Position numbers and translations under genes: made by a program
Assembly (NCBI GenBank): GCA_902555055.1
Contig: CACDQN010000003.1
Span: 15,860-79,859, forward strand
Source of the DNA: an uncultured Candidatus Actinomarina sp.
GTDB taxonomy: Bacteria; Actinomycetota; Acidimicrobiia; Actinomarinales; Actinomarinaceae
Direction of reading: 5' to 3'
DNA: 64,000 nucleotides
Shown here: in pieces, positions 10,676 through 54,977 of the stretch
Numbering within the stretch: position 1 is the first letter of the stretch
Layout of the letters: the number at the start of each line of letters is the position of its first letter
Notes under the pieces: model-generated
The model's input: the letters and a program-made list of their open reading frames with translations, nothing else
Database searches by the model: none
What the model was told of the DNA's origin: nothing

Positions 10676-10682
10676 TTGAGTT

Positions 10683-18388: not shown

Positions 18389-18461
<73 letters not shown>

Positions 18462-18470
18462 CACAAGATT

Positions 18471-19676: not shown

Positions 19677-19709
19677 AAATATATAAATTCATTAGTTAGA
19701 GTTAAAGTA

Positions 19710-21041
19710 ATGATAAGAAAAAACTTAACATTTGAGAAATTAATAGAAGTGCTTCTTTTTATCTCATTTTTATTAATTTTCTTAGATTCTTATCAGTTAT
19801 TTTCTATTCCACTTACTTGGGTGGGCAGCTCCTCACTACTAATTGTTACTTTTTTAATTTATTTAAAAGAAAATATAAAAATTGATAAATTATTTTTGTT
19901 AATTTTAATAATTTGCTTGATCCCTACAATCTTTAACTTTCTTTTAAATGACTATTTTGAATTAGATATTTTTTACACCATTTTGAGAATATTTAGCTTT
20001 GTTAGTTTTGCTTTTATAATTTATATATTTTTTAATTCAAACTATAAAGAAATGGCAATTAAAGTTTTAAAATTTGTTTTTTTAGTTGTTATTGCAGTAT
20101 CTATTTATGCATTTTTTGCTCAGTTATTTAATTTATATGAACCATTTAGAAATAGACCTGGAACGGGAATACTCGGTTTTGATACACAAACAAATTTTTG
20201 GATTTCAGGAAGTCACAGGTTGGTAGGAACTTTTAGAGAACCAGTCTTTATGGTATCCTTACTGTTTCCTTGCTTCTTAGTAATCCATTACAAAGCCATG
20301 AATTCTAGATTATTCTATTTATTTTCAGGAATCTTGTTTGGCTTAACTAAAAGTGAACTTTCATTATTTTTCATTTTATTTTTTTTAATTATCGAAATAT
20401 TGTTAAAAAATTTTAATCATAAAGTTATGATATTTTTACTAGTATTTATAACTTGTTTCTTCGTATCAATTAGAGAGTGTGACATAAGTCCTAATAATGC
20501 TGAATGTCCTCAATATGAATCAAGTATGACTACAGATTTTATTGATGATTCAATTGACGATCAAACTTCAAGTCCTAGTTCATTTCAGTTCAATAATAGA
20601 GAACGATTGGATACAGCTTCTTTTACTTTAGAATATTTGAATAAGAATATCGGTTTTGGATTTGGTTCTACAAATGAAAATTATACGGATTACTTAAGCA
20701 AAAATATAAGTAATGAAATGTATTTAACAAACCGAACATTTCCAAAGTATCTAAATATTAAATATCTATCTAAATCATTTGGTACAGGGAGGTATTTTTT
20801 GACTTATGAAGATATAAATATTCAAAATAACTTTCTATTTAATTTATTTTCTATTGGTATGTTTTATTTAGTTATTTTATTTCTTGTCTTCGTATATTTA
20901 ATAAAAGTAAATTTTCACAGTGGTATAAAAACAATTTTTCTAATCATCTGTATTTCACTAGCTGCGTATGAAGATTTATTACCAATATTTGGACTGTATT
21001 TAAGCCTCATGTTTACAATGGATAAAAATGCAAATAAATAA
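19710..21041 (+). CDS. Wzy/WaaL-like (O-antigen polymerase/ligase family) membrane protein
   Basis: Polytopic protein with a ~110-aa hydrophilic loop (ECDISPNNAECPQYE...) before the last TM block. Motif positions are shared with the 53793 and 37693 proteins (GTFREP.., ..NNFLFNLFSIG). Degenerate, so moderate confidence. Confidence 0.5.
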   Translation: MIRKNLTFEKLIEVLLFISFLLIFLDSYQLFSIPLTWVGSSSLLIVTFLIYLKENIKIDKLFLLILIICLIPTIFNFLLNDYFELDIFYTILRIFSFVSFAFIIYIFFNSNYKEMAIKVLKFVFLVVIAVSIYAFFAQLFNLYEPFRNRPGTGILGFDTQTNFWISGSHRLVGTFREPVFMVSLLFPCFLVIHYKAMNSRLFYLFSGILFGLTKSELSLFFILFFLIIEILLKNFNHKVMIFLLVFITCFFVSIRECDISPNNAECPQYESSMTTDFIDDSIDDQTSSPSSFQFNNRERLDTASFTLEYLNKNIGFGFGSTNENYTDYLSKNISNEMYLTNRTFPKYLNIKYLSKSFGTGRYFLTYEDINIQNNFLFNLFSIGMFYLVILFLVFVYLIKVNFHSGIKTIFLIICISLAAYEDLLPIFGLYLSLMFTMDKNANK

Positions 21042-22095
21042 TTTTTCTGCAGGGCCATCAAAAATACCTGAATCTATAATTAAAGAAATTTCAAAAGATC
21101 TTATAGATTATAATAAGTTAGGCTATTCAGTACTAGAGTTATCACATAGAAGTGATGAATTTTCAAACATAGTAAACAAAACTAAAGATCACCTCATTGA
21201 ATTATTAGGCATTCCTAATAATTTTGAAATTCTTTTACTTCAAGGCGGTGCAACTTTTCAGAATACGTTTATTCCAGCAAATAATCCTGAAATAAATAAT
21301 GATGTAGCCTTTTTACTCTCAGGAACCTGGGGAATAAAAACTTATAACGATTTTAATCATTATTTTAATTCAACAGTTCCCTCCGTATCTCTTCAGAATC
21401 AATCTATTGATGAAATTGTGTATGAAATTAATAATCTTAAGGAAAATTACTTATGCTTAACCTCTAATGAGACAATAGAGGGATTACAAATCAGAGAATT
21501 TAATAAATTTAAAAATAAAAAATTAATTATTGATATGTCTTCTGATATATGTTCATATAAATTTGATTGGGACAATATTGCATACGTATACGCGGGAGCT
21601 CAGAAAAACTTAGGTATTCCAGGAGTAACTGTATGTATTTTCGAAAAAAAATTTTTTAAAGATAACAATTTAACTAGCTATTTAAACGCTCAAAACCATA
21701 TTGAAAAAAATTCAGCATTTAACACCCCACCTACATTTTCAATTTATGTGATGCTTAAGGTTTTAGAGTGGATTCATGAAACTGGAGGAATCGAAAAAAT
21801 TGAAAAAAATAGCAAAAAAAAAGCAAAATATTTATATGATTTCTTAGATGACAATAATCAGAAGTTAATTTTAAATGTATCAAAAGAATATAGGAGTTAT
21901 TCAAATATAGTTTTTGATTTTAAAAATCAAAAACTAACAAAATTATTTTTAGAAGAAAGTATTAGTAAAGGGTTTATTGGTTTGAATGGCCACAGAAATG
22001 TTGGGGGTATTAGAGTAAGTAATTACAACAGCATTGAATTAAGGATGATTGAAGAATTCATTCACCATCTTAAAGTTTTTTTATCAAACAACTAA
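21028..22095 (+). CDS. serC: Phosphoserine aminotransferase
   Basis: NFSAGPSKIPESI, ELSHRSDEF and the PLP-lysine block GAQKNLGIPGVTV. 355 aa. 14-bp overlap with the preceding membrane-protein gene. Confidence 0.9.
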   Translation: MQINNFSAGPSKIPESIIKEISKDLIDYNKLGYSVLELSHRSDEFSNIVNKTKDHLIELLGIPNNFEILLLQGGATFQNTFIPANNPEINNDVAFLLSGTWGIKTYNDFNHYFNSTVPSVSLQNQSIDEIVYEINNLKENYLCLTSNETIEGLQIREFNKFKNKKLIIDMSSDICSYKFDWDNIAYVYAGAQKNLGIPGVTVCIFEKKFFKDNNLTSYLNAQNHIEKNSAFNTPPTFSIYVMLKVLEWIHETGGIEKIEKNSKKKAKYLYDFLDDNNQKLILNVSKEYRSYSNIVFDFKNQKLTKLFLEESISKGFIGLNGHRNVGGIRVSNYNSIELRMIEEFIHHLKVFLSNN

Positions 22096-22102
22096 TTAAA
22101 AC

Positions 22103-22747
22103 ATGATTATTAATAATTTTGTACAGTTGCAATTATCAAATAAAAATCTAATAGCTTATAAAACGCAGCTTAATATTTTAAATAATAGGAAAATAATAAT
22201 TCCACATGAGGAAATAAAAAATAATAACTATATTACTAAAGACATAATTTCCCATTCTTTAATTGTCCTTGGTGTTATTTTTGAATCTATAGATGAAGAA
22301 ATAATCTGTAAGGATGAGATGTTTATTCTAGATGGTCACCATAGATTTCAATTTATATTAGAAAATTCACTTAATGAATATTTTAATGTAGTTTTACTTG
22401 ATTTAAATAATATTAAAATTGAGTCTTATAATTCAGAACTGCTTGTAGATAAAGATATATTCTTAAATAAATTAGATTCAGAAAATATTTTAACCAATAG
22501 TTCAGAATCTAATTTATTTATTCAGGTTGATGAGGAGAAATATTATTTAAACAACATTACAAGTATTAGCGATCTCTATAGTTATAAAAAAGCACTTATG
22601 GCAGACAACTTTATTTCACCTATTGCAAATGATAAAAAGACAAAAAAAGTTAAAGTAAATTTTACATCTCTTACTTCTAATGACTTTAAGAAAGGTAGTA
22701 TTTTCCCCTATAAGTCAACATGGATAACTCCAAGGTTTAATTCATAA
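22103..22747 (+). CDS. Uncharacterised DGHHR-motif protein (half-size DUF1015 / ParB-Srx-like)
   Basis: Central FILDGHHRF (the ParB/Srx and DUF1015 hallmark) and C-terminal PYKSTWITPRF. The latter resembles the DUF1015 C-terminal P.KST.F.PK block as I remember it. 214 aa versus ~400 aa for typical family members. Confidence 0.4.
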   Translation: MIINNFVQLQLSNKNLIAYKTQLNILNNRKIIIPHEEIKNNNYITKDIISHSLIVLGVIFESIDEEIICKDEMFILDGHHRFQFILENSLNEYFNVVLLDLNNIKIESYNSELLVDKDIFLNKLDSENILTNSSESNLFIQVDEEKYYLNNITSISDLYSYKKALMADNFISPIANDKKTKKVKVNFTSLTSNDFKKGSIFPYKSTWITPRFNS

Positions 22748-22802
22748 TGAAAGATTATAAAAATTCTGAATGGTCCATACTTAATAAAACAGGTATGAAA
22801 AT

Positions 22803-23906
22803 ATGAAAATTTGTCATGTCATTAATGACTTATCAAGAGGCGGGGCAGAAACGCATTTACTTTCTTTAGTTGAGCTTCAAATTCAACAAGATAACGAAGT
22901 TAGTGTTTTATTGCTTGGAAGAGATCAGGATCACTTTGTATCTTTAGAAAGGGAGTTTATTGAATTAGGTGTAAAACTTAAGCGACTTAATGGTCCAAAA
23001 AAATTACAAGGTTTAAATCCATTCTCAATTTTTATAGCGACTCGATATTTCAGTGTTCAAAAATTTGATATTGTCCATACTCACTCACCAAGAAGTGATT
23101 TTCTCGTTTATATTTCTCAGAAGATTTTTAAGAATATTAACAAACGAATAGTTTCTATTCATGGAAAGTATGGAACCTATTTACAAGGTAATAAGTATGT
23201 CGACATCCTAAGAAGGTATTTCATAAATAAGCAGGCTAAAATTTGGCTAAGCGCACATAAGGTTATTGTCATATCTGAAAGTATAAAAGAATGGCTTAAT
23301 GCTTTAAATCCCTCAATAAAACCCGTAGTCATTCCTTATGGAATAAATAATCAAGATTTAGAAATTAATTTTACAAATAAAAATATAGGTTTTTTAGGTA
23401 GATTAAATAAAAATAAAGGAATTGAAGATTTGATTACAGTTTTTAATTCCATAACAAATGAACATAATAAAGAAATTTCACAATTCACTCTTTATATTGG
23501 CGGTGTTGGTACAGATACTTACGTTAAAAATTTACAAAAAACAACAACAGATAAAAATATTGAATTTCTTGGATATGTAAGTGATAGAAATAAATTCTTT
23601 AAATCACTTAGTGTTTTTGTTTTTCCATCATACTCAGAAGGCCTAGGTTTAGTATTGCTTGAGGCAATGTCATATGGAGTTCTCTGTATTGCTAGAGATG
23701 CTGCTCCAATGAACAAAATAATTAATCATGCAGATAATGGTTTTTTGTTTACTGATAATCAAGATCTAAAAAAAATTATTGAAACAGCATTGAAATTGAA
23801 TCAAAAAGAAAAAACTCAAATTATTAAAAATGCTCTTCATACAATAGAAAATTCATACAGTATAATTCAAATGTATTCGAGTATTGAAAAAGTTTATAGC
23901 AGTTAA
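22803..23906 (+). CDS. GT4-family glycosyltransferase
   Basis: GT-B fold with an EX7E motif ([16 protein letters not shown]) and N-terminal GGAETH sugar-donor-loop-like block. Paralogue of the GT4 at 54967. Confidence 0.8.
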
Positions 23907-37617: not shown

Positions 37618-37691
37618 GGGCCTGTAGCTCAGTTGGTTAGAGCAACGGACTCATAATCCGTCGGTCGTAGGTTCGAGTCCTGCCAGGCCCA
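37618..37691 (+). tRNA. tRNA with CAT anticodon (elongator Met or lysidine-modified Ile2)
   Basis: Hand-folded 74-nt cloverleaf. Acceptor GGGCCTG/CAGGCCC, anticodon stem ACGGA/TCCGT with loop CT-CAT-AA, T loop TTCGAGT. A G1:C72 pair and no GGG/CCC anticodon stem, so it is not an initiator. Confidence 0.85.
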
Positions 37692-37692
37692 C

Positions 37693-40110
37693 TTGAAGGA
37701 AAAATTGTACTTTATTTCATTGGGTTTGCTGGGTGCAGTTTCATTAATTTCACCCCCAGGTTTTCTTAGACTCGGTTTTATCGAGCTTTCAGATTTTTTA
37801 GTATTATTATTTTCTGCATTACTATTTTATGATTTTATTAAAAATCATGATTATAAAAAGATAAACTTTTCTTCACCTTCAGTAAGATTTTGGGGACTTT
37901 TATTAGTAATTTTATTTTTTTCATTAATAATCTACGGCCTTAATGTTTTGATTTTTAGATTAATGTTTTATTGTATTCTCGGATACCTATTTTCGAATTT
38001 AGTTATTAAGAATACTCCTGAAAATTTAGAATATTTTATAATTCCTTTTTCAGTTGTTACACTTTTGAATTTTGTCGCAGTAATCTTTCAGCTTTCTTAT
38101 GTTGACAATACAATTGGCTGGATTTCTTACTTCTATGAAAATCCAACATTTCTTCAACGTGGTAGACTATCTGGATTTCAAGGCTCTGGTCCCAATGTTG
38201 CTGGAGGTTTGTTCACTATTCTCACATTCCTTAATTTGTATTTTTATAAAGAATTAAAAAAAACATACTTTATCTTTTTTTCTTTCGCTAATTTATTTTT
38301 AGTATTTTTAAGTTTTTCTCGCGGTTCATATTTATCAATAACTCTTGGAGCAATTCTTTACCTACTTTTTCAAAGAAAAAGTATAAAGCTTACACTTGCC
38401 ATATCACTAGCTTTGATATTTTCTGTACTCGGAATATTATTTGTTGGTGATTCTAAAATCCTGTTAAAAGAAAGTGATAGAAGTTTTTTAACACAAATAG
38501 CTATTGAAAATATTTCATTACATAAAGGACTTGGGCCAGGTCAGTACGTTGAAGAAATATACAATGATTATTTTCTATCAATCAATCCTGACATTCTTGA
38601 AGAAAATTTAAATATAAATCTTAATAGAGTTGAACTTGGTATAACGCCTGAGGAGTATAGAGATTCCAATATTGAGTTTTTTATTGGTACTTCAGGTGGT
38701 GGATATGAAATTTTAGTACAAAGTAAACTAATTACTGAATGTGCTGAAGACAGAATAACTTGTCAACATGTTCGGGTTAAGAGTTCTTTGTTAGTCGAAT
38801 TTTTATCTGCTGTTTTTCAAATAGACAATCTAACATTAAATAATTTAATTTCAAGTTCTGGTTGTATTGACAAGAAAAATTTAAACATTTTAAGAGGAGA
38901 ATTTTATTGTTTTTTAGATAAAATATATGAGGATAATTTATATCAAGAACTAGATACGGTCAATATCCCTCTTGGTTTCTTCTTTGTACCTTGCACTGAT
39001 GACACAGCAATATCATGCGAGAATAGAGAATTGGCTATTGGAGAGCTAGCTGTAATTGTTGAGCAATTAAGCATCAGAGAAAATATAGTCTCACTTGAAA
39101 ACTATAAAAAATATTGTATGGAATGTAGTTTTAGGAATACACAAGGTTTTATTAAAATGAAATTTCAAAAAAATGAAGGCATATTACCAAGAAGCTCTGT
39201 TTCCTTTTACACTTCTTCGGATTCTTTAAATTGGGATATGATAGGTTATCCAAGGACTTCTGGAGATGTAATTGAATTTAATAGTAACTCATCTTATTTA
39301 GAAATAGGTGGACATTCAGATGGCCAATCATTTGGTAATACTTTCTTCGATGCTATTGTTGAAGAAGTTACAATTTTAGATATTAATAATTTTAAGACTA
39401 CAAAATTTACAAAAGAAAATTTAGGAAATGATTATTTCGTGTTCAAGCCTAATTCTGTATCTCCATATAATGCAAATATAACTTTTGAAAATAATGGAAT
39501 CAAACTTTTTAGACCAAACAAATATTGGGTAGCTATTGAAAATAATTATGACTTTACTAATGATTTTGAAATAATCTTAAAACTAACACTTCCTGAAATA
39601 CCTTGGGATAGACAAACTTTAATTTCTAATACTTCAATCATAAATAATCAAGTCCAATCTTGGAAATTGGAAGTTGACGATGGACGATTGTTTCTTTATT
39701 GGGCTAATGACGATGGTGTATTCGTTGAATCAAACACAATTGGGGACAAAAGTTTAAGGAGTGGTGTGTTAGTTCAACAAGATGGAAAAATATCTAATAC
39801 ACAACCGCCTATTGTAGATCCTTCTTTTTTAAGCCAATTAACAACTGCTCATAATGGATATTTAACTTTTAGTGTCGAGTTTGGAGTGATTATTTCTGTT
39901 TTATTTTATTTTATTATTTTTTATTACATTCTCAAATTCCTATTTTCTAAAAAATTTAATAACATCTTTGCCTTGCTTGCAGTATTAATGTTTTTATTTC
40001 AAAACATAACAAATGATATGATATATTCACCCGATATGTTCTTCTTATTTACTATTAGCTTTGGATTTTGTTTTCAGTCGAGTAAGTCATTTGAAGAGAC
40101 GAAGTCATAA
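37693..40110 (+). CDS. Wzy/WaaL-family membrane protein with a giant Cys-rich + LamG-like extracytoplasmic insertion
   Basis: N-terminal ~255 aa are polytopic, with GFQGSGPNVAGGLF and FSRGSYLS (compare GFQAGGPNAFGGL / YSRASMI in 53793). The C-terminus has TTAHNGYLTF plus 3 TM helices. Between them lie ~460 aa with 8 Cys and LamG_3-like blocks (YLEIGGHSDGQSFGNTFFDAIVEEVTILD; FEIILKLTL...WKLEVDDGRLFLYWAND). TTG start is uncertain. Confidence 0.6.
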   Translation: MKEKLYFISLGLLGAVSLISPPGFLRLGFIELSDFLVLLFSALLFYDFIKNHDYKKINFSSPSVRFWGLLLVILFFSLIIYGLNVLIFRLMFYCILGYLFSNLVIKNTPENLEYFIIPFSVVTLLNFVAVIFQLSYVDNTIGWISYFYENPTFLQRGRLSGFQGSGPNVAGGLFTILTFLNLYFYKELKKTYFIFFSFANLFLVFLSFSRGSYLSITLGAILYLLFQRKSIKLTLAISLALIFSVLGILFVGDSKILLKESDRSFLTQIAIENISLHKGLGPGQYVEEIYNDYFLSINPDILEENLNINLNRVELGITPEEYRDSNIEFFIGTSGGGYEILVQSKLITECAEDRITCQHVRVKSSLLVEFLSAVFQIDNLTLNNLISSSGCIDKKNLNILRGEFYCFLDKIYEDNLYQELDTVNIPLGFFFVPCTDDTAISCENRELAIGELAVIVEQLSIRENIVSLENYKKYCMECSFRNTQGFIKMKFQKNEGILPRSSVSFYTSSDSLNWDMIGYPRTSGDVIEFNSNSSYLEIGGHSDGQSFGNTFFDAIVEEVTILDINNFKTTKFTKENLGNDYFVFKPNSVSPYNANITFENNGIKLFRPNKYWVAIENNYDFTNDFEIILKLTLPEIPWDRQTLISNTSIINNQVQSWKLEVDDGRLFLYWANDDGVFVESNTIGDKSLRSGVLVQQDGKISNTQPPIVDPSFLSQLTTAHNGYLTFSVEFGVIISVLFYFIIFYYILKFLFSKKFNNIFALLAVLMFLFQNITNDMIYSPDMFFLFTISFGFCFQSSKSFEETKS

Positions 40111-41186
40111 AAATTTTCATTAAGAATTAATACTTGAGCACCACCCTCTGTTGTGTAGTTATAGGTTGGAACAGTTAATTTATTGATATTATTAAAATTT
40201 ATATCTTTAAAATCCCATAAGAGATTAGTTGCTTCAATTATGGAAATATTTTCGTCAATTGTAAAAGTATTTTCTAGAGCATTTACAAATTTTAAAAAAT
40301 CATTGAATGAGCTAAAATTATTTATCCTTTGCATCATTGAAATAATAAGCTCCTGTTGTTTTTTAATTCTAGTTAGGTCACTGACGCCAGGCATCGGTTT
40401 CCAAGATGAAATATCTTCTCCATTTTCATTAGTAATTTTCTCTCCATCTAATATTTCAGTATTTCTAGAGACTATCCAATTAAGTGCAATTTCACCATTT
40501 AGTGTATTGCATCCTTTTTGAATTTCAAATGAGTAGCCCTCCCTTTGTGTTTCATTTACACAAATTTCAACTCCACCCATACTATCTATAATTTCTTCAA
40601 ATCCCTCAAAACTAAATTTTACAAAGTGATCAATTTTGAGTCCTGTAATATTTAATATTACTGCAGATAAATTTTCTGCGTTTGATCCGCATCCATTGTT
40701 TTTATATGAACTGTTAATTCTTTGGATATTTTGACTACAAGGGTCTTCTATAAGTAAATCCCTCGGAAGAGAAATAAGGGATACATTTTCTTCAGAATCA
40801 ATTATTACAATCATAATAACATCTGCTCTGCTGCCTTCTACTATTCCTCTACTTGCAGATGAAGATTCACTTCTTTCATCACTTCCAATAACTAAATATG
40901 AAGTAAATATTTTTTCAATCCTTTTAGTAGTATTATTAATTAACAAACTATCATAAATAGATGTTTCAAAGAGTTCTTCATCTTCTTTTTTAAGTTCAGT
41001 TTCAGGATTAGCAACCTGATTATTTTCCTCAATAGTCGTAGTTGTTATTGTTCCTGAGGAAATATCTTCAATAATATTGGTGTTAAATTCTTCTCTTTCA
41101 AAGTTAGGGATAAAGGAATAAGCTATTATTCCTACTAACAGAATCCCTACAAGCAAGAATGTTTGTTTATTGAATTTCATAGTCAA
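40074..41186 (-). CDS. LytR-CpsA-Psr (LCP) family glycopolymer-to-peptidoglycan phosphotransferase
   Basis: N-terminal TM anchor and LCP core (LVIGSDERSE...RADVIMIVIID...VSLISLPRDLLI). The 3' end overlaps the convergent 37693 gene by 37 bp. Confidence 0.8.
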   Translation of the reverse strand: MTMKFNKQTFLLVGILLVGIIAYSFIPNFEREEFNTNIIEDISSGTITTTTIEENNQVANPETELKKEDEELFETSIYDSLLINNTTKRIEKIFTSYLVIGSDERSESSSASRGIVEGSRADVIMIVIIDSEENVSLISLPRDLLIEDPCSQNIQRINSSYKNNGCGSNAENLSAVILNITGLKIDHFVKFSFEGFEEIIDSMGGVEICVNETQREGYSFEIQKGCNTLNGEIALNWIVSRNTEILDGEKITNENGEDISSWKPMPGVSDLTRIKKQQELIISMMQRINNFSSFNDFLKFVNALENTFTIDENISIIEATNLLWDFKDINFNNINKLTVPTYNYTTEGGAQVLILNENFYDFVSSNDLLD

Positions 41187-41225: not shown

Positions 41226-41933
41226 ATGGAAAAAAATTATGTAGTTATTGCTGCTGGTGGCCTTGGAACTAGGTTAAAAAACTATAACAAAAATAATCAT
41301 ACAAAAGTTTTAATTGATATAAATGGGATAAGCATGATTTCTCTTCAAATTAAACAATTGATATCTTGGGGGTTATCTAATTTTGTTATAATTACAAATC
41401 CCGAATATCACAACATGATTAAAAATGATGTTGAATTAAATTTTAGTAATATAAATTTACAATTTGTTGTGCAGCAAGAGCCTAATGGCATTGCAGACGC
41501 ATTATCTTATGCAAACGACTTAATTCCAAAAAATTCATTAGTAACTTTTGTTTTAGGTGATAATTTTTTTGGCTCCAATCCATTATCTGATTTAAATTTA
41601 GATAATTTTACCGGAGCTCATTTGTTTGTTAAGGAAGTGTCAAATCCTCAAGAATTTGGAGTAATTGAAGTTGTAGACAATAAAGTAATTAATTTACATG
41701 AAAAGCCCCAAGACTATATTTCATCATATGCGGTTATAGGTCTATACATATATGAATATAAATGTTTTGATTATATAAATCTTTTAGAACCTTCAGAAAG
41801 AGGGGAATTGGAAATTACCGATTTAAATAAAATATTTTTGAACAAAGGAGATATCAGTTACAGTATTTTTGAATCTTGGTGGATTGATGCTGGTACAGAA
41901 GAACGCATTCAAACTTTAAAGAATCTACTTTAA
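41226..41933 (+). CDS. Sugar-1-phosphate nucleotidylyltransferase (RmlA/GalU-like short form)
   Basis: N-terminal VIAAGGLGTRLK signature, then GIADAL, VLGDNFF and HEKP blocks. 235 aa. Confidence 0.75.
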   Translation: MEKNYVVIAAGGLGTRLKNYNKNNHTKVLIDINGISMISLQIKQLISWGLSNFVIITNPEYHNMIKNDVELNFSNINLQFVVQQEPNGIADALSYANDLIPKNSLVTFVLGDNFFGSNPLSDLNLDNFTGAHLFVKEVSNPQEFGVIEVVDNKVINLHEKPQDYISSYAVIGLYIYEYKCFDYINLLEPSERGELEITDLNKIFLNKGDISYSIFESWWIDAGTEERIQTLKNLL

Positions 41934-42965
41934 AGGTTCCATTTTTTGAAATTTTAAATATAAAAAAATAATAAATAGCATATAAATCACAAATACAATC
42001 AATGACAAAGATTCAAATGCTATAGATACTGCTAGCAATACAAATATGAAAATATTAATTACTGAAAATAGCATCAAAATTTTTTGAACAGAATTTCCAT
42101 AATTCAATAATCTATGTGATATGTGATCAGTCCCTCCTTTTGTGGGAGATGTTTTATTTTTTACTCTATGAATAAATACAGTTAAAAAATCAAGCAAAGG
42201 AACTGTGAAAAAAAGGAATACAGGAGGTATTGAACTATATAGATAACTTTCACCTCCTGGATTCCAATCAAAAATTATACTTATAAATCCCAATATAAAA
42301 CCTATAAATAAGCTCCCTGAATCTCCCATGTAAATTCTTGCTGGTGGGAAGTTGAAAATTAAAAATCCAAGTATTGAAAGTAGTAATATAAAACTTACAT
42401 CCGCAAGATAGTTTTGATTAAAAATAAAAGCTAAAATTGTTATCGCAATACAGATAAACGCACTGTTTACTGCCGCAAAGCCATCCATGTTATCAATAAA
42501 ATTTATTGAGTTCATTAATACTACAATCCACAATACTGTGAAGAAAAAATTTAAATAATTAGAAAAATTTAATCCCGTGATATTTTCAATATTTATATAT
42601 TCTCCAAGAAATTGTATTGGCATACCAACAAATAAAAACTGAAAAAGAATTTTAATTTTCCAGCTTAAATTCAAAAAATCATCAATTACTCCTAGTATAG
42701 ATATTGCAAGAGCAAAAATAGATATTGTCACCATTTTTGGATCAGCTTCTCCTAGTAATCTAACGGATACAAAAAAACTTATCGCCATAGCTACACCACC
42801 AAGTGGAACTATATTCAAACTTGAAAGCCGTTGTTGTTGATTTTCTATAATCTTAAAATTCTTGTTCAATTTAATAACTATATTGCACAATATTAGAGAA
42901 AGCATAAATGCAAGAGTAGATGCCAGATATATCGAAAGTTGAAAATCTTCAAACAAATTCATCAT
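41925..42965 (-). CDS. Polyprenyl-phosphate HexNAc-1-phosphate transferase (WecA/MraY superfamily)
   Basis: NFIDNMDGFAAV and YMGDSGSLFIGF motifs with ~10 TM helices. Start placed at ATGATG 42965/42962. The track start at 43010 would overlap the upstream gene by 62 bp. Confidence 0.8.
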   Translation of the reverse strand: MMNLFEDFQLSIYLASTLAFMLSLILCNIVIKLNKNFKIIENQQQRLSSLNIVPLGGVAMAISFFVSVRLLGEADPKMVTISIFALAISILGVIDDFLNLSWKIKILFQFLFVGMPIQFLGEYINIENITGLNFSNYLNFFFTVLWIVVLMNSINFIDNMDGFAAVNSAFICIAITILAFIFNQNYLADVSFILLLSILGFLIFNFPPARIYMGDSGSLFIGFILGFISIIFDWNPGGESYLYSSIPPVFLFFTVPLLDFLTVFIHRVKNKTSPTKGGTDHISHRLLNYGNSVQKILMLFSVINIFIFVLLAVSIAFESLSLIVFVIYMLFIIFLYLKFQKMEPLK

Positions 42966-44046
42966 AGATTTTGTTAAATTCTTTAGCAATTGCTTCAACA
43001 GAATAATCACTATTTATAATATTTTTTGCATTCCCATAGTTAGATAACTCGTTATCTGAATTAAACGATTTTATTGCGTCAACATAACTTTCGATATCAT
43101 TGTTTTTGATTAGTAATCCAAAGTTAGTTTTCATAATTATTTCTTTAATTCCAGGAATGTCATTACAAATACAATACAAACCTGCATACATGCTCTCTAA
43201 AAGTATTCTAGAGAGTCCTTCATGATGGCTTGGCTGAATTAATATATCATAGTTGCAAAGCTCTTCATAAACATTAATTTGTCCCAGGTAATCCACATAG
43301 GGACTATTCTTTATACTTTCCAACTCTTCTTCGCTAATACTACTTTTATTTCCAAAGTCAGGTTTTCCTGCAATATAAAATTCTAAATTAGAATCTTCAT
43401 TCATAATTTTTGCAATTTTGATATATTCGTATATCCCTTTTTCTATCATCAATCTACCAACAAAAATAACTTTAGTTTTTGGATTCGTATCTGCTTTTAT
43501 TTTAATTTTCTTCGTATTCAGCCCACTTCCCTCAACAATTCTGGTTTTATTACTATATTTTGAATACTTAATAAAATCTTTCTTATTTTCAATATTTTGA
43601 AAAATAATTAAATCAACCTTTTTATTAATCTGTAAGATTATTAAAAATCTTGTTAAAAATTTTACAACTTTAGCTAATAGAGTATTAGCAAAAAGAAATC
43701 CTAATCCGGTAATGGAAACCATTACTTTAAATTCTTTATTATAAAAAATTGATGCAAAAATAAACATATAAAGTGACTTAATTGTAAATATATGTAAAGT
43801 GTCACTTTTGTCTATTTTTGAAAGTATTTTTCTTAATTGAATAATTCCTAAAACATCAAAAAAAATGTTTTTATTAGTGTTCCATAATATAGATTTATTG
43901 TAAATATTAATTACTTCTTCTGAATTTTCTTCAAGCGGACAAATTGAAGTTATTTTAAACTTGGTATCTAGAGATTTAACTATGTCAGCTCTTGATTGTT
44001 TTAATATCCAGTCAGAGTGCGCAAGATAATATATCATCAATGTCAT
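42949..44046 (-). CDS. GT4-family glycosyltransferase
   Basis: GT-B fold with an EX7E-type block HEGLSRILLESMYAGL. 365 aa. Co-directional with and overlapping the WecA-like gene. Confidence 0.75.
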   Translation of the reverse strand: MTLMIYYLAHSDWILKQSRADIVKSLDTKFKITSICPLEENSEEVINIYNKSILWNTNKNIFFDVLGIIQLRKILSKIDKSDTLHIFTIKSLYMFIFASIFYNKEFKVMVSITGLGFLFANTLLAKVVKFLTRFLIILQINKKVDLIIFQNIENKKDFIKYSKYSNKTRIVEGSGLNTKKIKIKADTNPKTKVIFVGRLMIEKGIYEYIKIAKIMNEDSNLEFYIAGKPDFGNKSSISEEELESIKNSPYVDYLGQINVYEELCNYDILIQPSHHEGLSRILLESMYAGLYCICNDIPGIKEIIMKTNFGLLIKNNDIESYVDAIKSFNSDNELSNYGNAKNIINSDYSVEAIAKEFNKIYDEFV

Positions 44047-44062: not shown

Positions 44063-45268
44063 ATGTATCATCAAATTATGCAATTAGTTATTGTTGGAGT
44101 GGGTTATGTTGGTTTAATAACAGGCTTATCATTTGCTAAAATAGGACATAATGTAAGTTTTATTGATACTGATAAAGATAAAATCAATGTTTTAAATCAT
44201 TACCGCCCACCATTTATTGAGCCTGAACTTAAAGATTATCTTTTAAATTCAGAAGTACAACAAAACACCCAATTTTTTGATAATTACAACGATATAAAGT
44301 GGGACAGCATCGATGCAGTAATAATATGTGTTCAAACTCCAACTACTGAAGAAGGAGATGTGGATATCAGCTATATTTCTTCTGTTTTCCACAACATCAA
44401 AGATTTAATTGATAATGAAACTATAATTTGTATCAAGTCGACAATCCATCCTTTAGCTCTTGAAAAGCTCTTCAAAGACTCGTCTATTAATTATGAAGAT
44501 CTGGTTTTTAATCCAGAATTTTTAAGAGAGGGAAGTGCGTTTGCTGATTTTTTTCATACAGATAGAGTTATTGTTGGTTCTCTTAATAGTGAAAATATGA
44601 AGAAAATTGGAGAACTTTATAGCAGTCTTGATACAGAAATAATCTACACAGATCCAGTAAGTTCTCAATTAATCAAATATCTATCAAATGCATATTTACC
44701 TTTACGGCTGTCTTTTGTTAACGAGGCATCAAGAGTAGTTGACGAATTGAATGCTAATCAAGAAGATGTTTTAAGAGGTGTAGGTTTAGATTCTAGAATT
44801 GGCCTTGATTACTTTAGACCTTCTCCCGGCTGGGGTGGTTCATGTTTTCCAAAAGATGTAAAAGAAATTCAGGAACTCGCTAAAAATCAAAATTTAAATT
44901 TGCCATTAGTTCAATCAATTATTAATTCTAATGATGTGCATATAAGCTGGTTTACAGATAAATTGGTTGACATGTTGGAATCTAACAATTTAGAAAAAGT
45001 ATGTTTAATTGGAGCTTCATTTAAAGAAAATACTGATGATATAAGACACTCTCCAACATTTGCAATCTATCAAAAATTACAACAACGTAGTAAAAAGGTT
45101 GAAATATATGACAACTATGTTTTATCAGATTTTGTATTAAATGACTTTGATTTGTTAAAAGATTACTCTCTTATCGTTGAAATGTTTCCTTTGGATGATT
45201 CTTATAATAAGTTGAAAGATAAAACCCAAGAACTTCAAAACACTATCTACTATCGATTTTGGAATTAG
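44063..45268 (+). CDS. ugd: UDP-glucose 6-dehydrogenase
   Basis: Rossmann VGVGYVGL and catalytic Cys in GWGGSCFPKD. The alternative start ATG 44078 (MQLVIVGVGYVG) fits the family N-terminus better. Confidence 0.85.
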   Translation: MYHQIMQLVIVGVGYVGLITGLSFAKIGHNVSFIDTDKDKINVLNHYRPPFIEPELKDYLLNSEVQQNTQFFDNYNDIKWDSIDAVIICVQTPTTEEGDVDISYISSVFHNIKDLIDNETIICIKSTIHPLALEKLFKDSSINYEDLVFNPEFLREGSAFADFFHTDRVIVGSLNSENMKKIGELYSSLDTEIIYTDPVSSQLIKYLSNAYLPLRLSFVNEASRVVDELNANQEDVLRGVGLDSRIGLDYFRPSPGWGGSCFPKDVKEIQELAKNQNLNLPLVQSIINSNDVHISWFTDKLVDMLESNNLEKVCLIGASFKENTDDIRHSPTFAIYQKLQQRSKKVEIYDNYVLSDFVLNDFDLLKDYSLIVEMFPLDDSYNKLKDKTQELQNTIYYRFWN

Positions 45269-45271
45269 ATT

Positions 45272-46213
45272 ATGAAGTATTTAATAACTGGTGGGGCGGG
45301 ATTTATAGGCAGTCATTTGATTGGTAAAATTATAACGAAAGCTGATAAAGTTATTGTTCTAGATAATTTACTCACTGGTTCAAAAAAAAATATTGAAAAG
45401 TTCATTAAGTTAGATAACTTTGAATTTAAACCTCATGACATACAACATCACTATGATATTTCGGAAAAAATGGATTATGTGATTCATCTAGCTAGCTGTG
45501 CGTCTCCTTTAGCGTATACTAAATTTCCTATCAATACACTTAAGTCAGGAAGTATTGGCACTATAAACGCATTAGGAATTGCAAGAAAATTTAACTCTAA
45601 ATTTCTTCTTTCTTCGACATCAGAAATATATGGAGATCCGAAGATTTCCCCACAAAGTGAAGATTACTGGGGAAACGTTAATCCAACTGGTCCTAGAAGT
45701 ATGTACGATGAATCTAAAAGATTTGCTGAGGCGGCAACACAAGCATATGTTAGTGAATATGATTTAAATGCAAACATTATAAGAATATTTAATACATACG
45801 GAGAAAATATGCAATTAAATGATGGTAGAGTGGTAACTAATTTTATTGTTCAAGCTTTAAATAACGACAATATCACGATTTACGGTGACGGACTTCAAAC
45901 GAGATCTTTTTCTTACATTGAAGATACTGTTAATGGACTTTTACTAGCATTAAATTATCCAAAATCTGAAATTTTTAACATAGGTAATGATAATGAAATG
46001 TCCATTAAAGATTTAGCAACTTTAATTTTAGAATTGACTAAATCTGATTCTAAAATAATTTATAAAAAGCTACCAGTTGATGATCCATTGCAAAGAAAAC
46101 CAGATTTAACTAAATCAAAAAAAATATTAGGTTATCAGCCAAAAATCGATATAGTGACAGGATTATCAAAAACTATTCAATGGATAAAGAATAATTCAAA
46201 TAAAATTGTTTAA
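45272..46213 (+). CDS. uxs: UDP-glucuronate decarboxylase (UDP-xylose synthase type SDR)
   Basis: ITGGAGFIGSHL, STSEIYGDP, YDESKR and GDGLQTRSF blocks typical of UXS/ArnA-C enzymes. Directly follows ugd. Confidence 0.8.
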   Translation: MKYLITGGAGFIGSHLIGKIITKADKVIVLDNLLTGSKKNIEKFIKLDNFEFKPHDIQHHYDISEKMDYVIHLASCASPLAYTKFPINTLKSGSIGTINALGIARKFNSKFLLSSTSEIYGDPKISPQSEDYWGNVNPTGPRSMYDESKRFAEAATQAYVSEYDLNANIIRIFNTYGENMQLNDGRVVTNFIVQALNNDNITIYGDGLQTRSFSYIEDTVNGLLLALNYPKSEIFNIGNDNEMSIKDLATLILELTKSDSKIIYKKLPVDDPLQRKPDLTKSKKILGYQPKIDIVTGLSKTIQWIKNNSNKIV

Positions 46214-51445: not shown

Positions 51446-51511
51446 TATCAGATTCTAACTCTTTTGATATATATCTTTTGGATATTTCTTGGTTCTATTA
51501 CTATAAATTAT

Positions 51512-53083
51512 ATGCTTACATTCCTAGGCCATGCTGCTTTTATGTACGAAACTGAGAATGAAATCTTACTTATGGACCCATGGATGTCAAAATCAGGTGC
51601 TTTTGATTCATCTTGGTATCAGTTTCCTTCAAATCATCTTCTTGGCGATGATGTTCGAGAATTAATTGAAACGACAGACAAAAATGTATACATTTATATA
51701 AGTCATGAACATAAAGATCACTTTGACCTTCCTTTTCTTAAATCCCTTCCATTAAGTAAAATTAATTTTATTACTCCAAAATTTAGAAGAGACCATGTGG
51801 CTTCTGTTTTAAATAAATTAAATCCTAATTCTGTAACTACACCTATTGATTCAGAAATAGTTAATATTGGAAATCTAGAAATAAGGCTGTTTCTTGATGA
51901 TCAAGAAATTGTCAGAGATTCAGCTTTAGGTCTCCATGATTCTGACTCTGATTTTACATTTTTAAACCTAAATGATTGTAAAGTTTATGATCGTGTAGAT
52001 GAACTCTTCGCAATATACAACAAATTTGATATTTTTACATGTCAATTTTCTGGTGCCGTTTTTCATCCCGTTTGTTATGAATATCCTGAAAAAAAATATT
52101 ATGAGATTTCTGAATCTAAAGTTTATGGAAAATTTGGTTCTGTTAAAAATCTTATTCAAAAATTTAAACCAGAACTTTATATACCGGCAGCTGGCCCCCC
52201 AGTCTTTTTAGATCCAAATTTGATTCATATAAATTTTCAAGATGTAAATATATTCTCGTCACCTTTTAAATTTAAAAAATATTTAAATGATGCAATACCT
52301 GAATTAAATGTAGAAGTCCCTGTTCCTGGTAGTAAATTTTATTTTAAGAAGCAACAAGTAGATATTGAACATCCTCTAGAGAATATTGAAGAAATGTACG
52401 ATAAAAAAAATATTCAAGATTATGCAAATAATTACGAATCTATTTTCTTAGAGAGAGAAAAGCAAAAATCGTCTTACGACCCTATCGAAGTCCAAAAAAG
52501 ATTGTTAGTTGAATTAAACTCAAAATTAAATGGTTTTAAAATTGAACAAAAAATGAATATTTTAATGGAGTTTTCCTTAAGTGAAATTGAAGATACTTCT
52601 ATCTACATAGATTTTGAATATAACCAAATAGATATTAAGAATAAAATTAATAAAAGTTCTGACTTAACCTATGAGATTAGCGCATCAGCAGGTGATATTG
52701 GAAGATTATTAGATGGGTATCTTAATTGGGAAGATTTCATGCTTTCATTTAGACACAAATTGAAACGAACCCCTGATATCTATCAAGTAGCTATCAACGG
52801 TTTCTTAACAATGGAAAAAGAAGATGTACCTGAATTCGTTAATAATTTAATGCGATTACAAAACCAAAGAGAACGAATTTCTGTTGAAGTTGGTGGAGTG
52901 TTGTACTCTATTGATAAATTTTGTCCTCACCAGGGTAGTGATTTAACTACTCATGAAATTGAAGACGAGAGATTTCTGATTTGTCCTAAACATAGATGGT
53001 CATTTGATTTAGAAGATGAGGGTAAAGCAGTGGGACATGATGCTTCAATAAATGCAGTAGATCTTGATGGCGATGGTTCTTAA
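51512..53083 (+). CDS. CMAH/NamH-like Rieske [2Fe-2S] + metallo-beta-lactamase-fold monooxygenase
   Basis: MBL-type start MLTFLGHAAF..LLMDPW and HxHxDH motif (YISHEHKDHF). C-terminal Rieske ligands CPH-(17 aa)-CPKH. ATG 51512 is preferred over TTG 51464. Confidence 0.65.
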   Translation: MLTFLGHAAFMYETENEILLMDPWMSKSGAFDSSWYQFPSNHLLGDDVRELIETTDKNVYIYISHEHKDHFDLPFLKSLPLSKINFITPKFRRDHVASVLNKLNPNSVTTPIDSEIVNIGNLEIRLFLDDQEIVRDSALGLHDSDSDFTFLNLNDCKVYDRVDELFAIYNKFDIFTCQFSGAVFHPVCYEYPEKKYYEISESKVYGKFGSVKNLIQKFKPELYIPAAGPPVFLDPNLIHINFQDVNIFSSPFKFKKYLNDAIPELNVEVPVPGSKFYFKKQQVDIEHPLENIEEMYDKKNIQDYANNYESIFLEREKQKSSYDPIEVQKRLLVELNSKLNGFKIEQKMNILMEFSLSEIEDTSIYIDFEYNQIDIKNKINKSSDLTYEISASAGDIGRLLDGYLNWEDFMLSFRHKLKRTPDIYQVAINGFLTMEKEDVPEFVNNLMRLQNQRERISVEVGGVLYSIDKFCPHQGSDLTTHEIEDERFLICPKHRWSFDLEDEGKAVGHDASINAVDLDGDGS

Positions 53084-53088
53084 ATATA

Positions 53089-53817
53089 TTGTCATATAAT
53101 TCTAAATCTCATTTGATAATAGTTCCAACTTATAATGAAATTGATAATATAGATAAATTTATCGAGGAAGTTTTTAAAATTGATGTTTCTCTTCTAGTTG
53201 TTGATGACAATTCTCCTGACGGAACTTCTAGTTATGTAGAGAATATTATGAAAACCCATCAAAAAATATATTTGTTAAAAAGAAATTCAAAACTAGGATT
53301 AGGTTCTGCTTACAGAGATGGTTTTAAATGGGGGTTAAATAAGGGATTCACTCATTTTATTGAAATGGATGCAGATTTTTCTCATAGTTTTGAAGATTTG
53401 TTGAAAATATTGGATAGCTCGCATTATTCCGATGTAGTAATTGGTAGCAGGTATATTTCTGGTGGAGGGAGTACAGGTTGGGATACGAAGCGAAAAATAT
53501 TGTCAATTACAGCTAATAATTTATCAAAATTATTACTCCGTTCAAAAATAAATGATATGACGAGTGGCTTTAGGTGTTATTCCAGAAAAGCTTTAGAAGA
53601 AATAGAATATTTTAAAACTAATTCAGATGGGTATTCCTTTCAAATTGAAATGACAATCAGAAGTATTGCAAAAGGGCTAATTATTAAAGAGGTACCAATA
53701 ATTTTTTATGAAAGAAGACTTGGAAATTCTAAAATGTCCAAATCAATAGTTTTGGAAGCATTACTATTCCTCTTAAAGAATGGATTAAAAAGATGGTTAA
53801 ATATAAAGATAAATTAA
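53089..53817 (+). CDS. GT2 polyprenol-phosphate glycosyltransferase (Dpm1/Ppm1/GtrB-like)
   Basis: IIVPTYNE, VVDDNSPDGT and MDADFSH (DxD) motifs. 242 aa. TTG start. Confidence 0.8.
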   Translation: MSYNSKSHLIIVPTYNEIDNIDKFIEEVFKIDVSLLVVDDNSPDGTSSYVENIMKTHQKIYLLKRNSKLGLGSAYRDGFKWGLNKGFTHFIEMDADFSHSFEDLLKILDSSHYSDVVIGSRYISGGGSTGWDTKRKILSITANNLSKLLLRSKINDMTSGFRCYSRKALEEIEYFKTNSDGYSFQIEMTIRSIAKGLIIKEVPIIFYERRLGNSKMSKSIVLEALLFLLKNGLKRWLNIKIN

Positions 53818-54977
53818 TTAACTTTCAAATTTTTCTTGTCTTCCTAATTCCAATAACTCCACACATATCTATTTCATCCTATATAGAGCTAGATGATATT
53901 CCAGTAATTTTATTTCTAGTATTATTTATGATCAACATATATTTAAAAAATTTAAAACAAATTTTTTACAGGCAGTTAATTCCTATATGTATTTTTACTT
54001 TTTATATTTTTGTTCAAAATATATTTATTAATAATGAACTAATTTTTAGTGACGGAATGAGATATATATTCTACACCGCTTTATATATTTCACTACTAGG
54101 TGACAATGATTTAAATCAATATGATAATCTGTTTAGAAATCTTACCTTATTTTTAAATTTTTTTTCAATTCTATTTTTTTTCCTTCAGTTAAATTTTGGT
54201 ACTGACTCATATAATTATTGGAAAATGGGATTTAATGAAAATCAATGGATATTTACTGATGGAAGGATGAACGGTTTTCAAGCAGGAGGTCCTAATGCTT
54301 TTGGAGGCTTAATAGCAGCACTAAATTTATATTGTATTTCCAACAGTAACCGAGTTTATAAAAGAATTTTTATTGTAACCGGGATATTGGGCTGTTTCTT
54401 CACTTACAGTCGTGCATCCATGATAATTTTAATAATTTTGTTGACTGCGTATTTAATTTTATCAAAGAATATATTTGAAGTTTTTTTAGTGGGATTAACA
54501 ATTATTTTTGTAACAAATTTCGGTTTATTAGATAGGTTTATTTCAGAAGCAGAAACTGAAGGAATTCAGGATAGAGTAGAAATGCAGCAAGCTACTATTT
54601 CTGATATATCTTCTAGAGGCTTAGCTAATAATTTATTTGGTTATGGACATAATAATTATGGAATTGTCAGAAGCGAAATACAGCAAACTACAAATTTTTC
54701 ACCTGAGTTAAGGCCAACTGGACCCCACAATTCTTTTTTGTTTATAATTTTAGATTACGGATTTGTAGGATTGTTATTATTTATTTGTATCTTTATAAAA
54801 CCAGTTAAAGTGTTTTTTAAAGATATTAAAGATAATATTTTAGATAAAAATTTTTTATTTTTAGGATCTTTTGTAGCTATGTCTCTTACAGGTGATTTTA
54901 TTCAGAATCATTCAGTTTCGATTCTCTTCTTTTTTGTATTTTTTAAGTTAAACATAAGTATTCAAAATGAAAGATAA
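53793..54977 (+). CDS. O-antigen ligase/polymerase family (Wzy_C) membrane protein
   Basis: RMNGFQAGGPNAFGGL, FTYSRASMIILI and TGPHNSFLFIILDYGFVG motifs with ~10 TM helices. 25-bp overlap with the GT2 gene. Confidence 0.65.
   Translation: MVKYKDKLINFQIFLVFLIPITPHISISSYIELDDIPVILFLVLFMINIYLKNLKQIFYRQLIPICIFTFYIFVQNIFINNELIFSDGMRYIFYTALYISLLGDNDLNQYDNLFRNLTLFLNFFSILFFFLQLNFGTDSYNYWKMGFNENQWIFTDGRMNGFQAGGPNAFGGLIAALNLYCISNSNRVYKRIFIVTGILGCFFTYSRASMIILIILLTAYLILSKNIFEVFLVGLTIIFVTNFGLLDRFISEAETEGIQDRVEMQQATISDISSRGLANNLFGYGHNNYGIVRSEIQQTTNFSPELRPTGPHNSFLFIILDYGFVGLLLFICIFIKPVKVFFKDIKDNILDKNFLFLGSFVAMSLTGDFIQNHSVSILFFFVFFKLNISIQNER

Follow-up and report, generated by a model that had tools for sequence, protein, structure and literature searches.

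A WaaL-like Membrane Enzyme With a Wzy_C Domain Split by a Large Extracytoplasmic Insertion, Encoded at the Boundary of an Envelope-Glycan Island in Candidatus Actinomarina

Results

A Membrane Protein With a Split Wzy_C Domain

We analyzed a stretch of 64,000 nucleotides from an uncultured Candidatus Actinomarina sp. (assembly GCA_902555055.1, contig CACDQN010000003.1), hereafter called the window, which has a G+C content of 29%. The gene in question is located next to a tRNA-Met and codes for a membrane protein of 805 amino acids (Table 1). This protein is a WaaL-like member of the Wzy_C / O-antigen-ligase superfamily with 12 transmembrane helices and a fold of the GT-C type, and its Wzy_C domain is interrupted by an insertion of about 420 residues. 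An original prediction, made from the nucleotide sequence without database searches, had described it as an enzyme of the Wzy_C/WaaL superfamily with an expanded outer loop, and the class assignment is borne out by the profile match, the fold match and the motifs presented below. All of the sequence strings quoted in that prediction are present in the translation: GFQGSGPNVAGGL corresponds to residues 161-173, FSRGSYLS to 208-215, AHNGYL to 719-724, TECAEDRITCQ to 348-358, GC...YCF to 390-407, PCTDDTAISCE to 433-443 and YCMECS to 474-479, and the two beta-rich blocks to residues 535-563 and 621-675.

The native protein matched the Pfam family Wzy_C (PF04932) over residues 197-256 (profile positions 3-64) with 24.8 bits, which falls below the curated gathering cut-off of 31.7 bits. 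When residues 293-709 were removed in silico, the match covered positions 2-148 of the 149 positions in the profile and rose above the cut-off (33.6 bits, E 4e-8). This end-to-end match after excision indicates that the domain is complete and that it is split by an insertion sitting inside it. In the AlphaFold2 (AF2) model, nine transmembrane helices are followed by the insertion and then by three more helices; the mean predicted local distance difference test (pLDDT) was 78.7 and the predicted template modeling score (pTM) 0.58, with low confidence for the linkers at residues 252-262, 292-310 and 706-722. The best match to the model in a Foldseek search against the PDB was WaaL (7tpg, chain 7tpg_B; probability 0.98, E 0.018), and the SEDS protein FtsW was the third. 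Nothing usable was returned by sequence and profile searches of the PDB with the whole protein and with the spliced scaffold, and neither the native nor the spliced protein matched an NCBIfam model.

In this superfamily, an arginine motif in combination with the pattern HN-x9-G is taken as ligase-defining. The arginine motif in the 805-residue protein is SRGSYL (residues 209-214, nucleotides 38317-38334), which is of the WaaL type, and HN-x9-G spans H720 to G731 in a histidine loop that represents the most conserved stretch of the whole protein. Matches to the patterns [ST]R[AG][ST]x[LIM] and HN-x9-G were found in this protein (at 209 and 720), in a 394-residue paralog encoded elsewhere in the window and in WaaL from E. 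coli K-12, where the counterparts are TRATLL at 214 and HNEIIEAGSLKG at 338. Neither motif is present in the E. coli polymerase WzyE or in a Wzy-like protein of 443 residues that is also encoded in the window. In an alignment of 40 homologs, which are 45-87% identical to the window protein, SRGSYL at 209 and HNGYLTFSVEFG at 720 were invariant. The invariant positions of this alignment also include eight cysteines, the residues GxQGxGPNV at 161-169 (GFQGSGPNV in the window protein), which are located in the first outer loop, and within longer motifs SRG (209-211) and AHNG (719-722). The roles of the catalytic histidine and arginine residues in WaaL and PglS have been described (PMC12800693).

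The 394-residue paralog is an ordinary Wzy_C protein that lacks the insertion. It aligns with residues 29-281 of the larger protein (30% identity, E 2e-10) and again, weakly, at AHNGY versus PHNSF, so that about 420 residues stand where the paralog has about 20. Two ordinary Wzy_C paralogs had been expected in the window, and only this one was confirmed. The second candidate, the 443-residue protein, was not confirmed, having no Pfam match, marginal profile similarity (E 0.02) and no histidine motif. A profile search with the spliced scaffold for the closest relatives without an insertion recovered only proteins of the 394-residue type from the island and distant proteins annotated as "O-antigen ligase."

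A Family of Full-Length Homologs

A search of 5.8 billion proteins identified 226 relatives of the 805-residue protein, which were derived from marine metagenomes, Tara samples and single-cell genomes. Nearly all of the best 120 of these have lengths of 787-821 amino acids and a few are truncated, with identities to the window protein down to 45%. When one genome per species was scanned, the gene was found in 44 loci from independent single-cell and metagenome assemblies, all of which belong to Candidatus Actinomarina, Actinomarinales, OCS155 or unclassified marine Actinomycetota. The only label of the family in public sources is "hypothetical protein," and literature searches for this architecture and for O-antigen ligases in Actinomarina found nothing relevant, in agreement with the original prediction, in which the architecture was not recognized as a described one.

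At one locus, in a long-read metagenome-assembled genome of the Actinomarinales (L044, CALSSQ010000001.1), only residues 481-699 were matched, at positions 10001-10744, and the region contains no open reading frame (ORF) of at least 100 amino acids. The fragmentation probably reflects frameshifts in the assembly rather than a free-standing beta domain.

Location and Layout of the Insertion

The nine helices that precede the insertion place it outside the cell, if the N-terminus is inside. The short loops contain 11 lysine and arginine residues in 39 positions predicted to be inside, versus three in 56 positions predicted to be outside. Together with the invariant cysteine pairs, which would fit an oxidizing compartment, the helix count and the positive-inside bias argue for an extracytoplasmic insertion, and they rule out the alternative that it is cytoplasmic. 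The topology evidence thus agrees with the placement originally proposed, in an outer loop just before the catalytic-type histidine motif.

The insertion was expected to consist of a cysteine-rich and a beta-rich part, and both were found, in the order linker, cysteine-rich helical module and beta domain. The first third of the juxtamembrane linker, to about residue 290 (GLGPGQY), is the ordinary Wzy_C loop, and the remainder (YFLSINP...VELGITPEE...GTSGGGYE) is the start of the insertion, which is very conserved and modeled with low confidence by AF2. The mean pairwise identity was 0.72 for the linker, 0.46 for the cysteine-rich module, 0.62 for the beta domain and 0.87 for the histidine loop, compared to 0.40-0.42 for the membrane helices (residues 1-256 and 732-805). 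That the parts of the insertion are more conserved than the membrane helices indicates that the insertion is under purifying selection. A profile of the insertion searched against 1.84 billion representative proteins gave 85 matches, almost all of which were members or fragments of the same family.

Many Actinomarinales have a shorter form of the protein, 661-665 amino acids long, at the same genomic position. It retains the linker and the beta domain and lacks the whole cysteine-rich helical module. Examples are found among the loci L016-L043 (e.g., L021, 9959-11956). The division into long and short forms does not strictly follow the similarity groups for DnaG and GlyRS, as L016 and L018 have short forms yet belong to the 65% DnaG group. 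The short form may be derived, since the most divergent lineage sampled (L011) has long forms.

The Cysteine-Rich Helical Module

Eight of the ten cysteines in the protein are located within residues 350-478, where they form four close pairs (C350/C357, C391/C406, C434/C442 and C475/C478), as had been noted from the translation. All eight are invariant in the 40 homologs and are also present in forms of 834 amino acids that are only 22-30% identical over this module. The four pairs are probable disulfides. No match to the module was found in Pfam, in sequence searches of the PDB or with Foldseek, and the insertion profile detected it in no other protein context among the 1.84 billion representatives. 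We also considered the possibility that a motif of the type [IV]TRGEF in the module signifies an SLH domain. This interpretation was rejected, as none of 11 members matched SLH at E <= 10 and there was no sequence match in the PDB; likewise, no SLH structures were present among the 50 best Foldseek matches listed for the insertion.

A Single Beta Domain Related to Phage Tail-Fiber Repeats

The original prediction allowed for two jelly rolls, and a single beta domain was found. The LamG_3 label that came with it is supported indirectly, through a profile link to phage tail-fiber repeats, but the direct signals from Pfam and Foldseek remained below their thresholds. Laminin_G_3 (PF13385) gave no match to the window protein at E <= 1, and the best value obtained in any of 13 beta domains was E 0.027, in one of them. 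Foldseek matches included the legume lectin 7ljg (probability 0.23-0.47, TM-score 0.23-0.27) and a viral "LamG-like jellyroll" protein (probability 0.90, E 0.03, 241 columns). With the isolated insertion, only generic beta-sandwiches were retrieved, among them M1 aminopeptidase N-domains, lectins and capsid jelly rolls. Sequence searches of the PDB with profiles of the beta domain, the cysteine-rich module and the tail-fiber repeats gave nothing usable.

The few distant matches to the insertion profile were proteins composed of tandem repeats of about 205 amino acids, whose relatives in phages of Arthrobacter, Curtobacterium and Streptomyces are annotated as tail fiber or minor tail proteins. 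Three of 12 such repeats weakly matched nearly the whole Laminin_G_3 profile (E 0.016-0.018). In comparisons with hhalign, the C-terminal half of the repeat was aligned to the first 95 or so residues of the beta domain (probability 96.8%, E 2.7e-10; 96.6% in a second comparison), and its N-terminal half to residues 142-199 of the domain (E 0.0026, probability 11%). With tandem pairs of repeats, a single collinear alignment was obtained in which positions 7-198 of the domain correspond to positions 91-267 of the pair (173 columns, probability 95.7%). This alignment starts in the C-terminal half of one repeat and ends in the N-terminal half of the next, which implies a circular permutation, and the strand order of a canonical LamG domain is not observed, since the C-terminal half precedes the N-terminal half. 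We consider it likely that the beta domain is ConA/LamG-like, and the simplest reading of the alignments is that it probably represents a jelly roll of this type, with a circular permutation in comparison to the phage-type repeat.

Five proteins from outside the window (P0185, P0191, P0199, P0201 and P0202), which are of high G+C content, contain three to seven tandem LamG-like repeats of about 205 amino acids, none of which is above the Pfam threshold. Their relatives are the phage tail proteins mentioned above, and the repeats have the appearance of a family that belongs to receptor-binding proteins of actinophages and has not been curated.

The First Gene of an Exchangeable Island

The 3' end of the tRNA-Met gene abuts the TTG start codon directly, and in the nine related loci to which ARAGORN was applied, the gap between the two was always 0-3 nucleotides. 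In about 43 loci, the sequence across the junction is ...GCCCAC|TTG/GTG/ATG. Such a gap leaves no room for a separate ribosome-binding site, and the mRNA may be co-transcribed with the tRNA-Met and released nearly leaderless by the processing of the tRNA 3' end. On the other side, the gene for a LytR-CpsA-Psr (LCP) protein overlaps the 3' end of the Wzy_C gene by 37 nucleotides, with overlaps of 4-40 nucleotides in 35 of 36 related loci. The arrangement in related loci thus matches the original description of a first gene after the tRNA that bounds the island, overlapping at its 3' end with an LCP gene.

The gene order was the same in all 44 loci, with the genes for GlyRS, DnaG, tRNA-Asn, SCP2 and tRNA-Met upstream of the Wzy_C gene, and those for the convergent LCP protein, an RmlA-like protein, a WecA/TagO-like GT4, a GT1, UDP-glucose dehydrogenase and an epimerase downstream. 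The core genes upstream of the tRNA-Met are up to about 90% identical between loci, whereas the Wzy_C gene and the cassette are 44-62% identical (e.g., L010 and L004). For L010, the values are 90% for GlyRS and 84% for DnaG, versus 46% for the Wzy_C gene, 56% for LCP and 44% for GT4. This contrast identifies the tRNA-Met as a recombination boundary, with the Wzy_C gene at the head of the exchangeable part, and some version of this gene is always present. Across loci, the identity of the Wzy_C gene correlates best with that of LCP (Spearman 0.59), although this relationship is noisy and gives weak support at most. A flexible island of exactly this kind, fGI1, which is bounded by tRNAs and devoted to envelope polysaccharides, has been described in the Actinomarinales (PMC7771536).

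Two initiating phosphoglycosyl transferases are encoded in the island: the WecA/TagO-like GT4, which is located in its conserved head, and further in a small Bac_transf protein of the WbaP/PglC type (60701-61324, minus strand). The presence of two different initiating enzymes suggests that at least two lipid-linked glycans are started here. The island also codes for a protein of 539 amino acids (51464-53083) with a metallo-beta-lactamase-fold region (residues 18-141) and a C-terminal Rieske [2Fe-2S] domain (residues 472-523), which is an unusual pairing for a sugar-modifying enzyme and presumably reminiscent of proteins of the CMP-sialic acid hydroxylase type. A second, small glycan cassette directly follows a tRNA-Ala (18389-18462) and occupies positions 18389-23906 of the window.

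Table 1. Features of the Wzy_C gene and its surroundings, given as positions in the window.
Feature	Position	Strand	Evidence or remark
Coding sequence, complete, TTG start, 805 amino acids; Wzy_C/WaaL-superfamily membrane enzyme with ~420-residue extracytoplasmic insertion	37693..40110	+	
Transmembrane helices 1-9 (residues 1-256)	37693..38460	+	AF2 helices, hydropathy, positive-inside count, invariant residues
Juxtamembrane linker (residues 257-334)	38461..38694	+	Paralog alignment; 38% of columns invariant
Cysteine-rich helical module (residues 335-480)	38695..39132	+	Four invariant cysteine pairs; absent in 661-665-residue form
Beta-sandwich domain (residues 481-706, ~225 amino acids, ~16 strands)	39133..39810	+	AF2; in long and short forms
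Histidine loop (residues 707-731), LSQLTTAHNGYLTFSVEFG, with HN-x9-G motif	39811..39885	+	60% of columns invariant
Transmembrane helices 10-12 and cytoplasmic tail (residues 732-805)	39886..40107	+	AF2, hydropathy, positive-inside count
tRNA-Met (CAT), left boundary of flexible envelope-glycan island	37618..37692	+	ARAGORN
LCP glycopolymer-peptidoglycan transferase, convergent	40074..41186	-	Pfam 8.5e-27; NCBIfam TIGR00350
RmlA-like nucleotidyltransferase	41226-41933	+	Pfam, NCBIfam, synteny
WecA/TagO-like GT4 phosphotransferase	41925-43010	-	Pfam, NCBIfam, synteny
GT1	42949-44046	-	Pfam, NCBIfam, synteny
UDP-glucose dehydrogenase	44063-45268	+	Pfam, NCBIfam, synteny
Epimerase	45272-46213	+	Pfam, NCBIfam, synteny
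Wzy_C paralog, 394 amino acids, without insertion	53793..54977	+	Pfam Wzy_C 1.6e-13, alignment, motifs
Wzx-like flippase candidate, second cassette	18468-19676		Polysacc_synt E 0.003; mechanical ORF start 18420 inside tRNA-Ala
Polytopic Wzy-like protein, 443 amino acids, second cassette	19710-21041		No Pfam match, no histidine motif
Aminotransferase, second cassette	21028-22095		
GT1, second cassette	22803-23906		Just before LeuRS

Discussion

A Possible Ligase With a Built-In Ectodomain

The 805-residue protein is very probably a transferase of the Wzy_C superfamily that acts on glycans linked to undecaprenyl diphosphate (Und-PP). The chances that it is of the ligase type are about even, and we lean toward a ligase over a polymerase for several reasons: the histidine and arginine motifs are present here and absent from WzyE and from the 443-residue protein of the window, the best fold match is WaaL, and the architecture and the residues of the ectodomain are fixed while the rest of the island varies. 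Furthermore, in Streptococcus pneumoniae, which has a single membrane, one Und-PP-linked polymer is partitioned between the Wzy_C ligase TacL (RafX), which puts it on a glycolipid, and LCP enzymes, which put it on peptidoglycan (PMC5727136). Overall, we cautiously favor the hypothesis that the protein is a WaaL/TacL-like ligase with a built-in glycan-binding ectodomain.

According to this hypothesis, the enzyme would act at the outer face of the cytoplasmic membrane on Und-PP-linked glycans produced by the adjacent cassette. A finished lipid-linked glycan would be transferred en bloc to an acceptor other than peptidoglycan, for example a membrane glycolipid or a surface protein, and peptidoglycan would receive precursors of this kind from the LCP enzyme, whose gene lies tail-to-tail with the Wzy_C gene. 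About 420 residues expand the loop with the catalytic-type H720 and protrude outside the cell, and this ectodomain could bind a glycan, be it the acceptor or the arriving polymer, and position it over the active site. That the ectodomain most likely binds a glycan is suggested by its fold type, by its phage tail-fiber relatives and by the analogous case of PglS, which has an additional periplasmic domain (PMC12800693).

There are admittedly several points that weigh against this interpretation. The organism is uncultured and the enzyme is known here from its sequence alone. The Wzy_C family covers ligases as well as some polymerases, and two short motifs are weak discriminators between them; nor did the scaffold profile show a significant match to either WaaL or WzyE from E. 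coli with hhalign, and the sequence searches of the PDB were empty. In an actinobacterium that lacks an outer membrane, there is no lipid A-core to serve as the acceptor. Moreover, a ligase is already available in the neighboring LCP protein, and this would be compatible with the Wzy_C protein being a polymerase, as for TuaE in Bacillus subtilis (bioRxiv 10.1101/2025.04.24.650519). The pTM of 0.58 and the low-confidence linkers mean that the placement of the ectodomain over the active site is at the level of a model. As for the beta domain, the Pfam threshold for Laminin_G_3 was never reached, every Foldseek match to the insertion had E > 0.008 and low TM-scores, and the second half of the proposed permutation depends on a weak alignment.

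A Polymerase, a Protein Glycosyltransferase or an Artefact

Another hypothesis, which we consider possible but clearly less probable, is that the protein is a polymerase of the Wzy/TuaE type that builds a wall polymer, such as one resembling teichuronic acid and containing uronic acid, from Und-PP-linked repeat units. The ectodomain would then hold the growing chain, perhaps in place of a chain-length regulator, and the LCP protein would attach the polymer to peptidoglycan as the sole ligase needed. The conserved cassette, with its WecA/TagO-like initiator, GT1, UDP-glucose dehydrogenase, epimerase and LCP protein, resembles the logic of the B. subtilis tua genes, in which polymerization by TuaE and TuaF takes place outside the cell, followed by transfer of the polymer to peptidoglycan (bioRxiv 10.1101/2025.04.24.650519). 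The Wzy_C gene also diverges quickly along with the cassette, as genes for glycan-specific enzymes do, and membership of the Wzy_C family does not separate ligases from polymerases.

Set against this are the WaaL-type SR[GA]S and HN-x9-G motifs, which both WzyE and the 443-residue protein lack, and the best fold match, which is to WaaL. Wzy polymerases usually work together with a Wzx flippase and a chain-length regulator, and the 443-residue protein, which is encoded beside a Wzx-like flippase, is a better polymerase candidate. No protein of the Wzz/PCP type was found among the ORFs of the island that were scanned, as would be expected if the ectodomain replaced it, but the island runs beyond the window, which weakens this argument. 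Finally, the architecture and many residues of the ectodomain are fixed across genera while the cassettes vary, a pattern that is more typical of a reader of a conserved acceptor.

We also considered the possibility that the protein is an O-oligosaccharyltransferase resembling PglL/PglS or the S-layer enzymes WsaB/WsfB, with an ectodomain that recognizes a surface protein rather than a glycan. We regard this as improbable, and it is a sub-case of the ligase hypothesis and overlaps with it. The scaffold and the histidine and arginine motifs are the same as in O-oligosaccharyltransferases, and LamG-like domains bind proteins as well as glycans. However, the ORFs scanned in the window included no candidate for an acceptor protein and no S-layer gene adjoining the Wzy_C gene, and the nearest detectable relatives of the beta domain are phage tail-fiber repeats, which would usually be readers of wall glycans. 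In PglS itself, a cleft near the active site is formed by an additional periplasmic domain (PMC12800693), but this domain is C-terminal rather than inserted.

The suggestion that the long ORF is an artefact in which an error of assembly or a frameshift joined two genes, as the original prediction had cautioned, or a decayed enzyme with a functionless insertion, has next to no probability: although Pfam covers the native protein only in part, a small number of database entries are truncated or split (e.g., 372 + 421 amino acids on one contig) and the L044 copy is fragmented, more than 200 full-length homologs were recovered from independent assemblies, as were the 44 loci, the insertion is better conserved than the membrane helices, both flanks belong to one single Wzy_C domain in the spliced match, the catalytic-type motifs are invariant, and the residues that are invariant across homologs, with the cysteines invariant in the divergent 834-residue forms as well, exclude chance and frameshift fusion.

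Implications for Surface Diversification

Candidatus Actinomarina is among the smallest and most abundant of marine bacteria (PMC7771536). The gene described here always occupies the first position in the one flexible island through which the surface glycans are diversified, presumably under phage pressure, and it is paired with the gene for an LCP wall ligase. If the ligase hypothesis is correct, a WaaL-type enzyme with a built-in binding domain would represent a new coupling of glycan recognition to transfer, and this in a minimal genome. Further gains would be an orphan domain, whose four cysteine pairs are probably linked by disulfides, and a candidate for a natural circular permutant of the LamG fold.

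A more far-reaching idea, which we put forward as speculative and unlikely, is that the enzyme is a self-contained "reader-writer." A lectin-type ectodomain that shares ancestry with tail-fiber repeats would pick the acceptor or measure the polymer before a WaaL-type transfer, thereby replacing partners such as Wzz, and the four-disulfide module would be a new fold for gating or tuning that was gained or lost between lineages. Should this be the case, the host enzyme and the receptor-binding proteins of phages would read the same rapidly diversifying wall glycan with related modules.

Comparison With Known Systems

The closest structural counterpart is WaaL, as known from Cupriavidus metallidurans (PDB 7TPG/7TPJ) and E. 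coli K-12. The two proteins share the 12-helix Wzy_C scaffold, with the arginine motif after helix 7 and HN-x9-G in the large outer loop at equivalent positions, and presumably also the Und-PP-linked glycan donor at the outer face of the membrane. However, WaaL is about 400-420 amino acids long with a short outer loop, whereas the protein studied here has its additional residues just before the histidine motif and no sequence-level match to any PDB chain. The hosts also differ: the cell-wall structure of the Actinomarinales is unknown and an outer membrane is unlikely (PMC7771536), so that lipid A-core cannot be the acceptor in this actinobacterium.

TacL is a Wzy_C enzyme of a single-membrane bacterium that works in parallel to LCP enzymes on the same polymer (PMC5727136), and the Wzy_C and LCP genes studied here are adjacent and overlapping in 35 of 36 loci. 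In contrast, TacL is 397 amino acids long and has no ectodomain. TuaE and the Wzy polymerases are similar in that a polytopic protein of the Wzy_C type is encoded together with UDP-glucose dehydrogenase, glycosyltransferases and an initiating phosphotransferase, but the histidine motif is absent from WzyE of E. coli, and we know of no polymerase with a lectin-like insertion.

PglL and PglS combine the Wzy_C scaffold with an extra periplasmic domain that helps to form the substrate cleft (PMC12800693), as the ectodomain might do here. Yet their extra domain (Wzy_C_2) is C-terminal and unrelated, whereas the domains in the Actinomarina protein are inserted inside Wzy_C. The repeats in actinophage tail fibers, such as gp25 of Arthrobacter phage Shoya, have a C-terminal half with which the beta domain can be aligned, but they form a tandem array in a fiber, unlike the single, probably permuted copy embedded in a membrane enzyme. 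The enzyme class is well known, which is not the case for the split-domain architecture, the orphan cysteine-rich module and the proposed permuted jelly roll.

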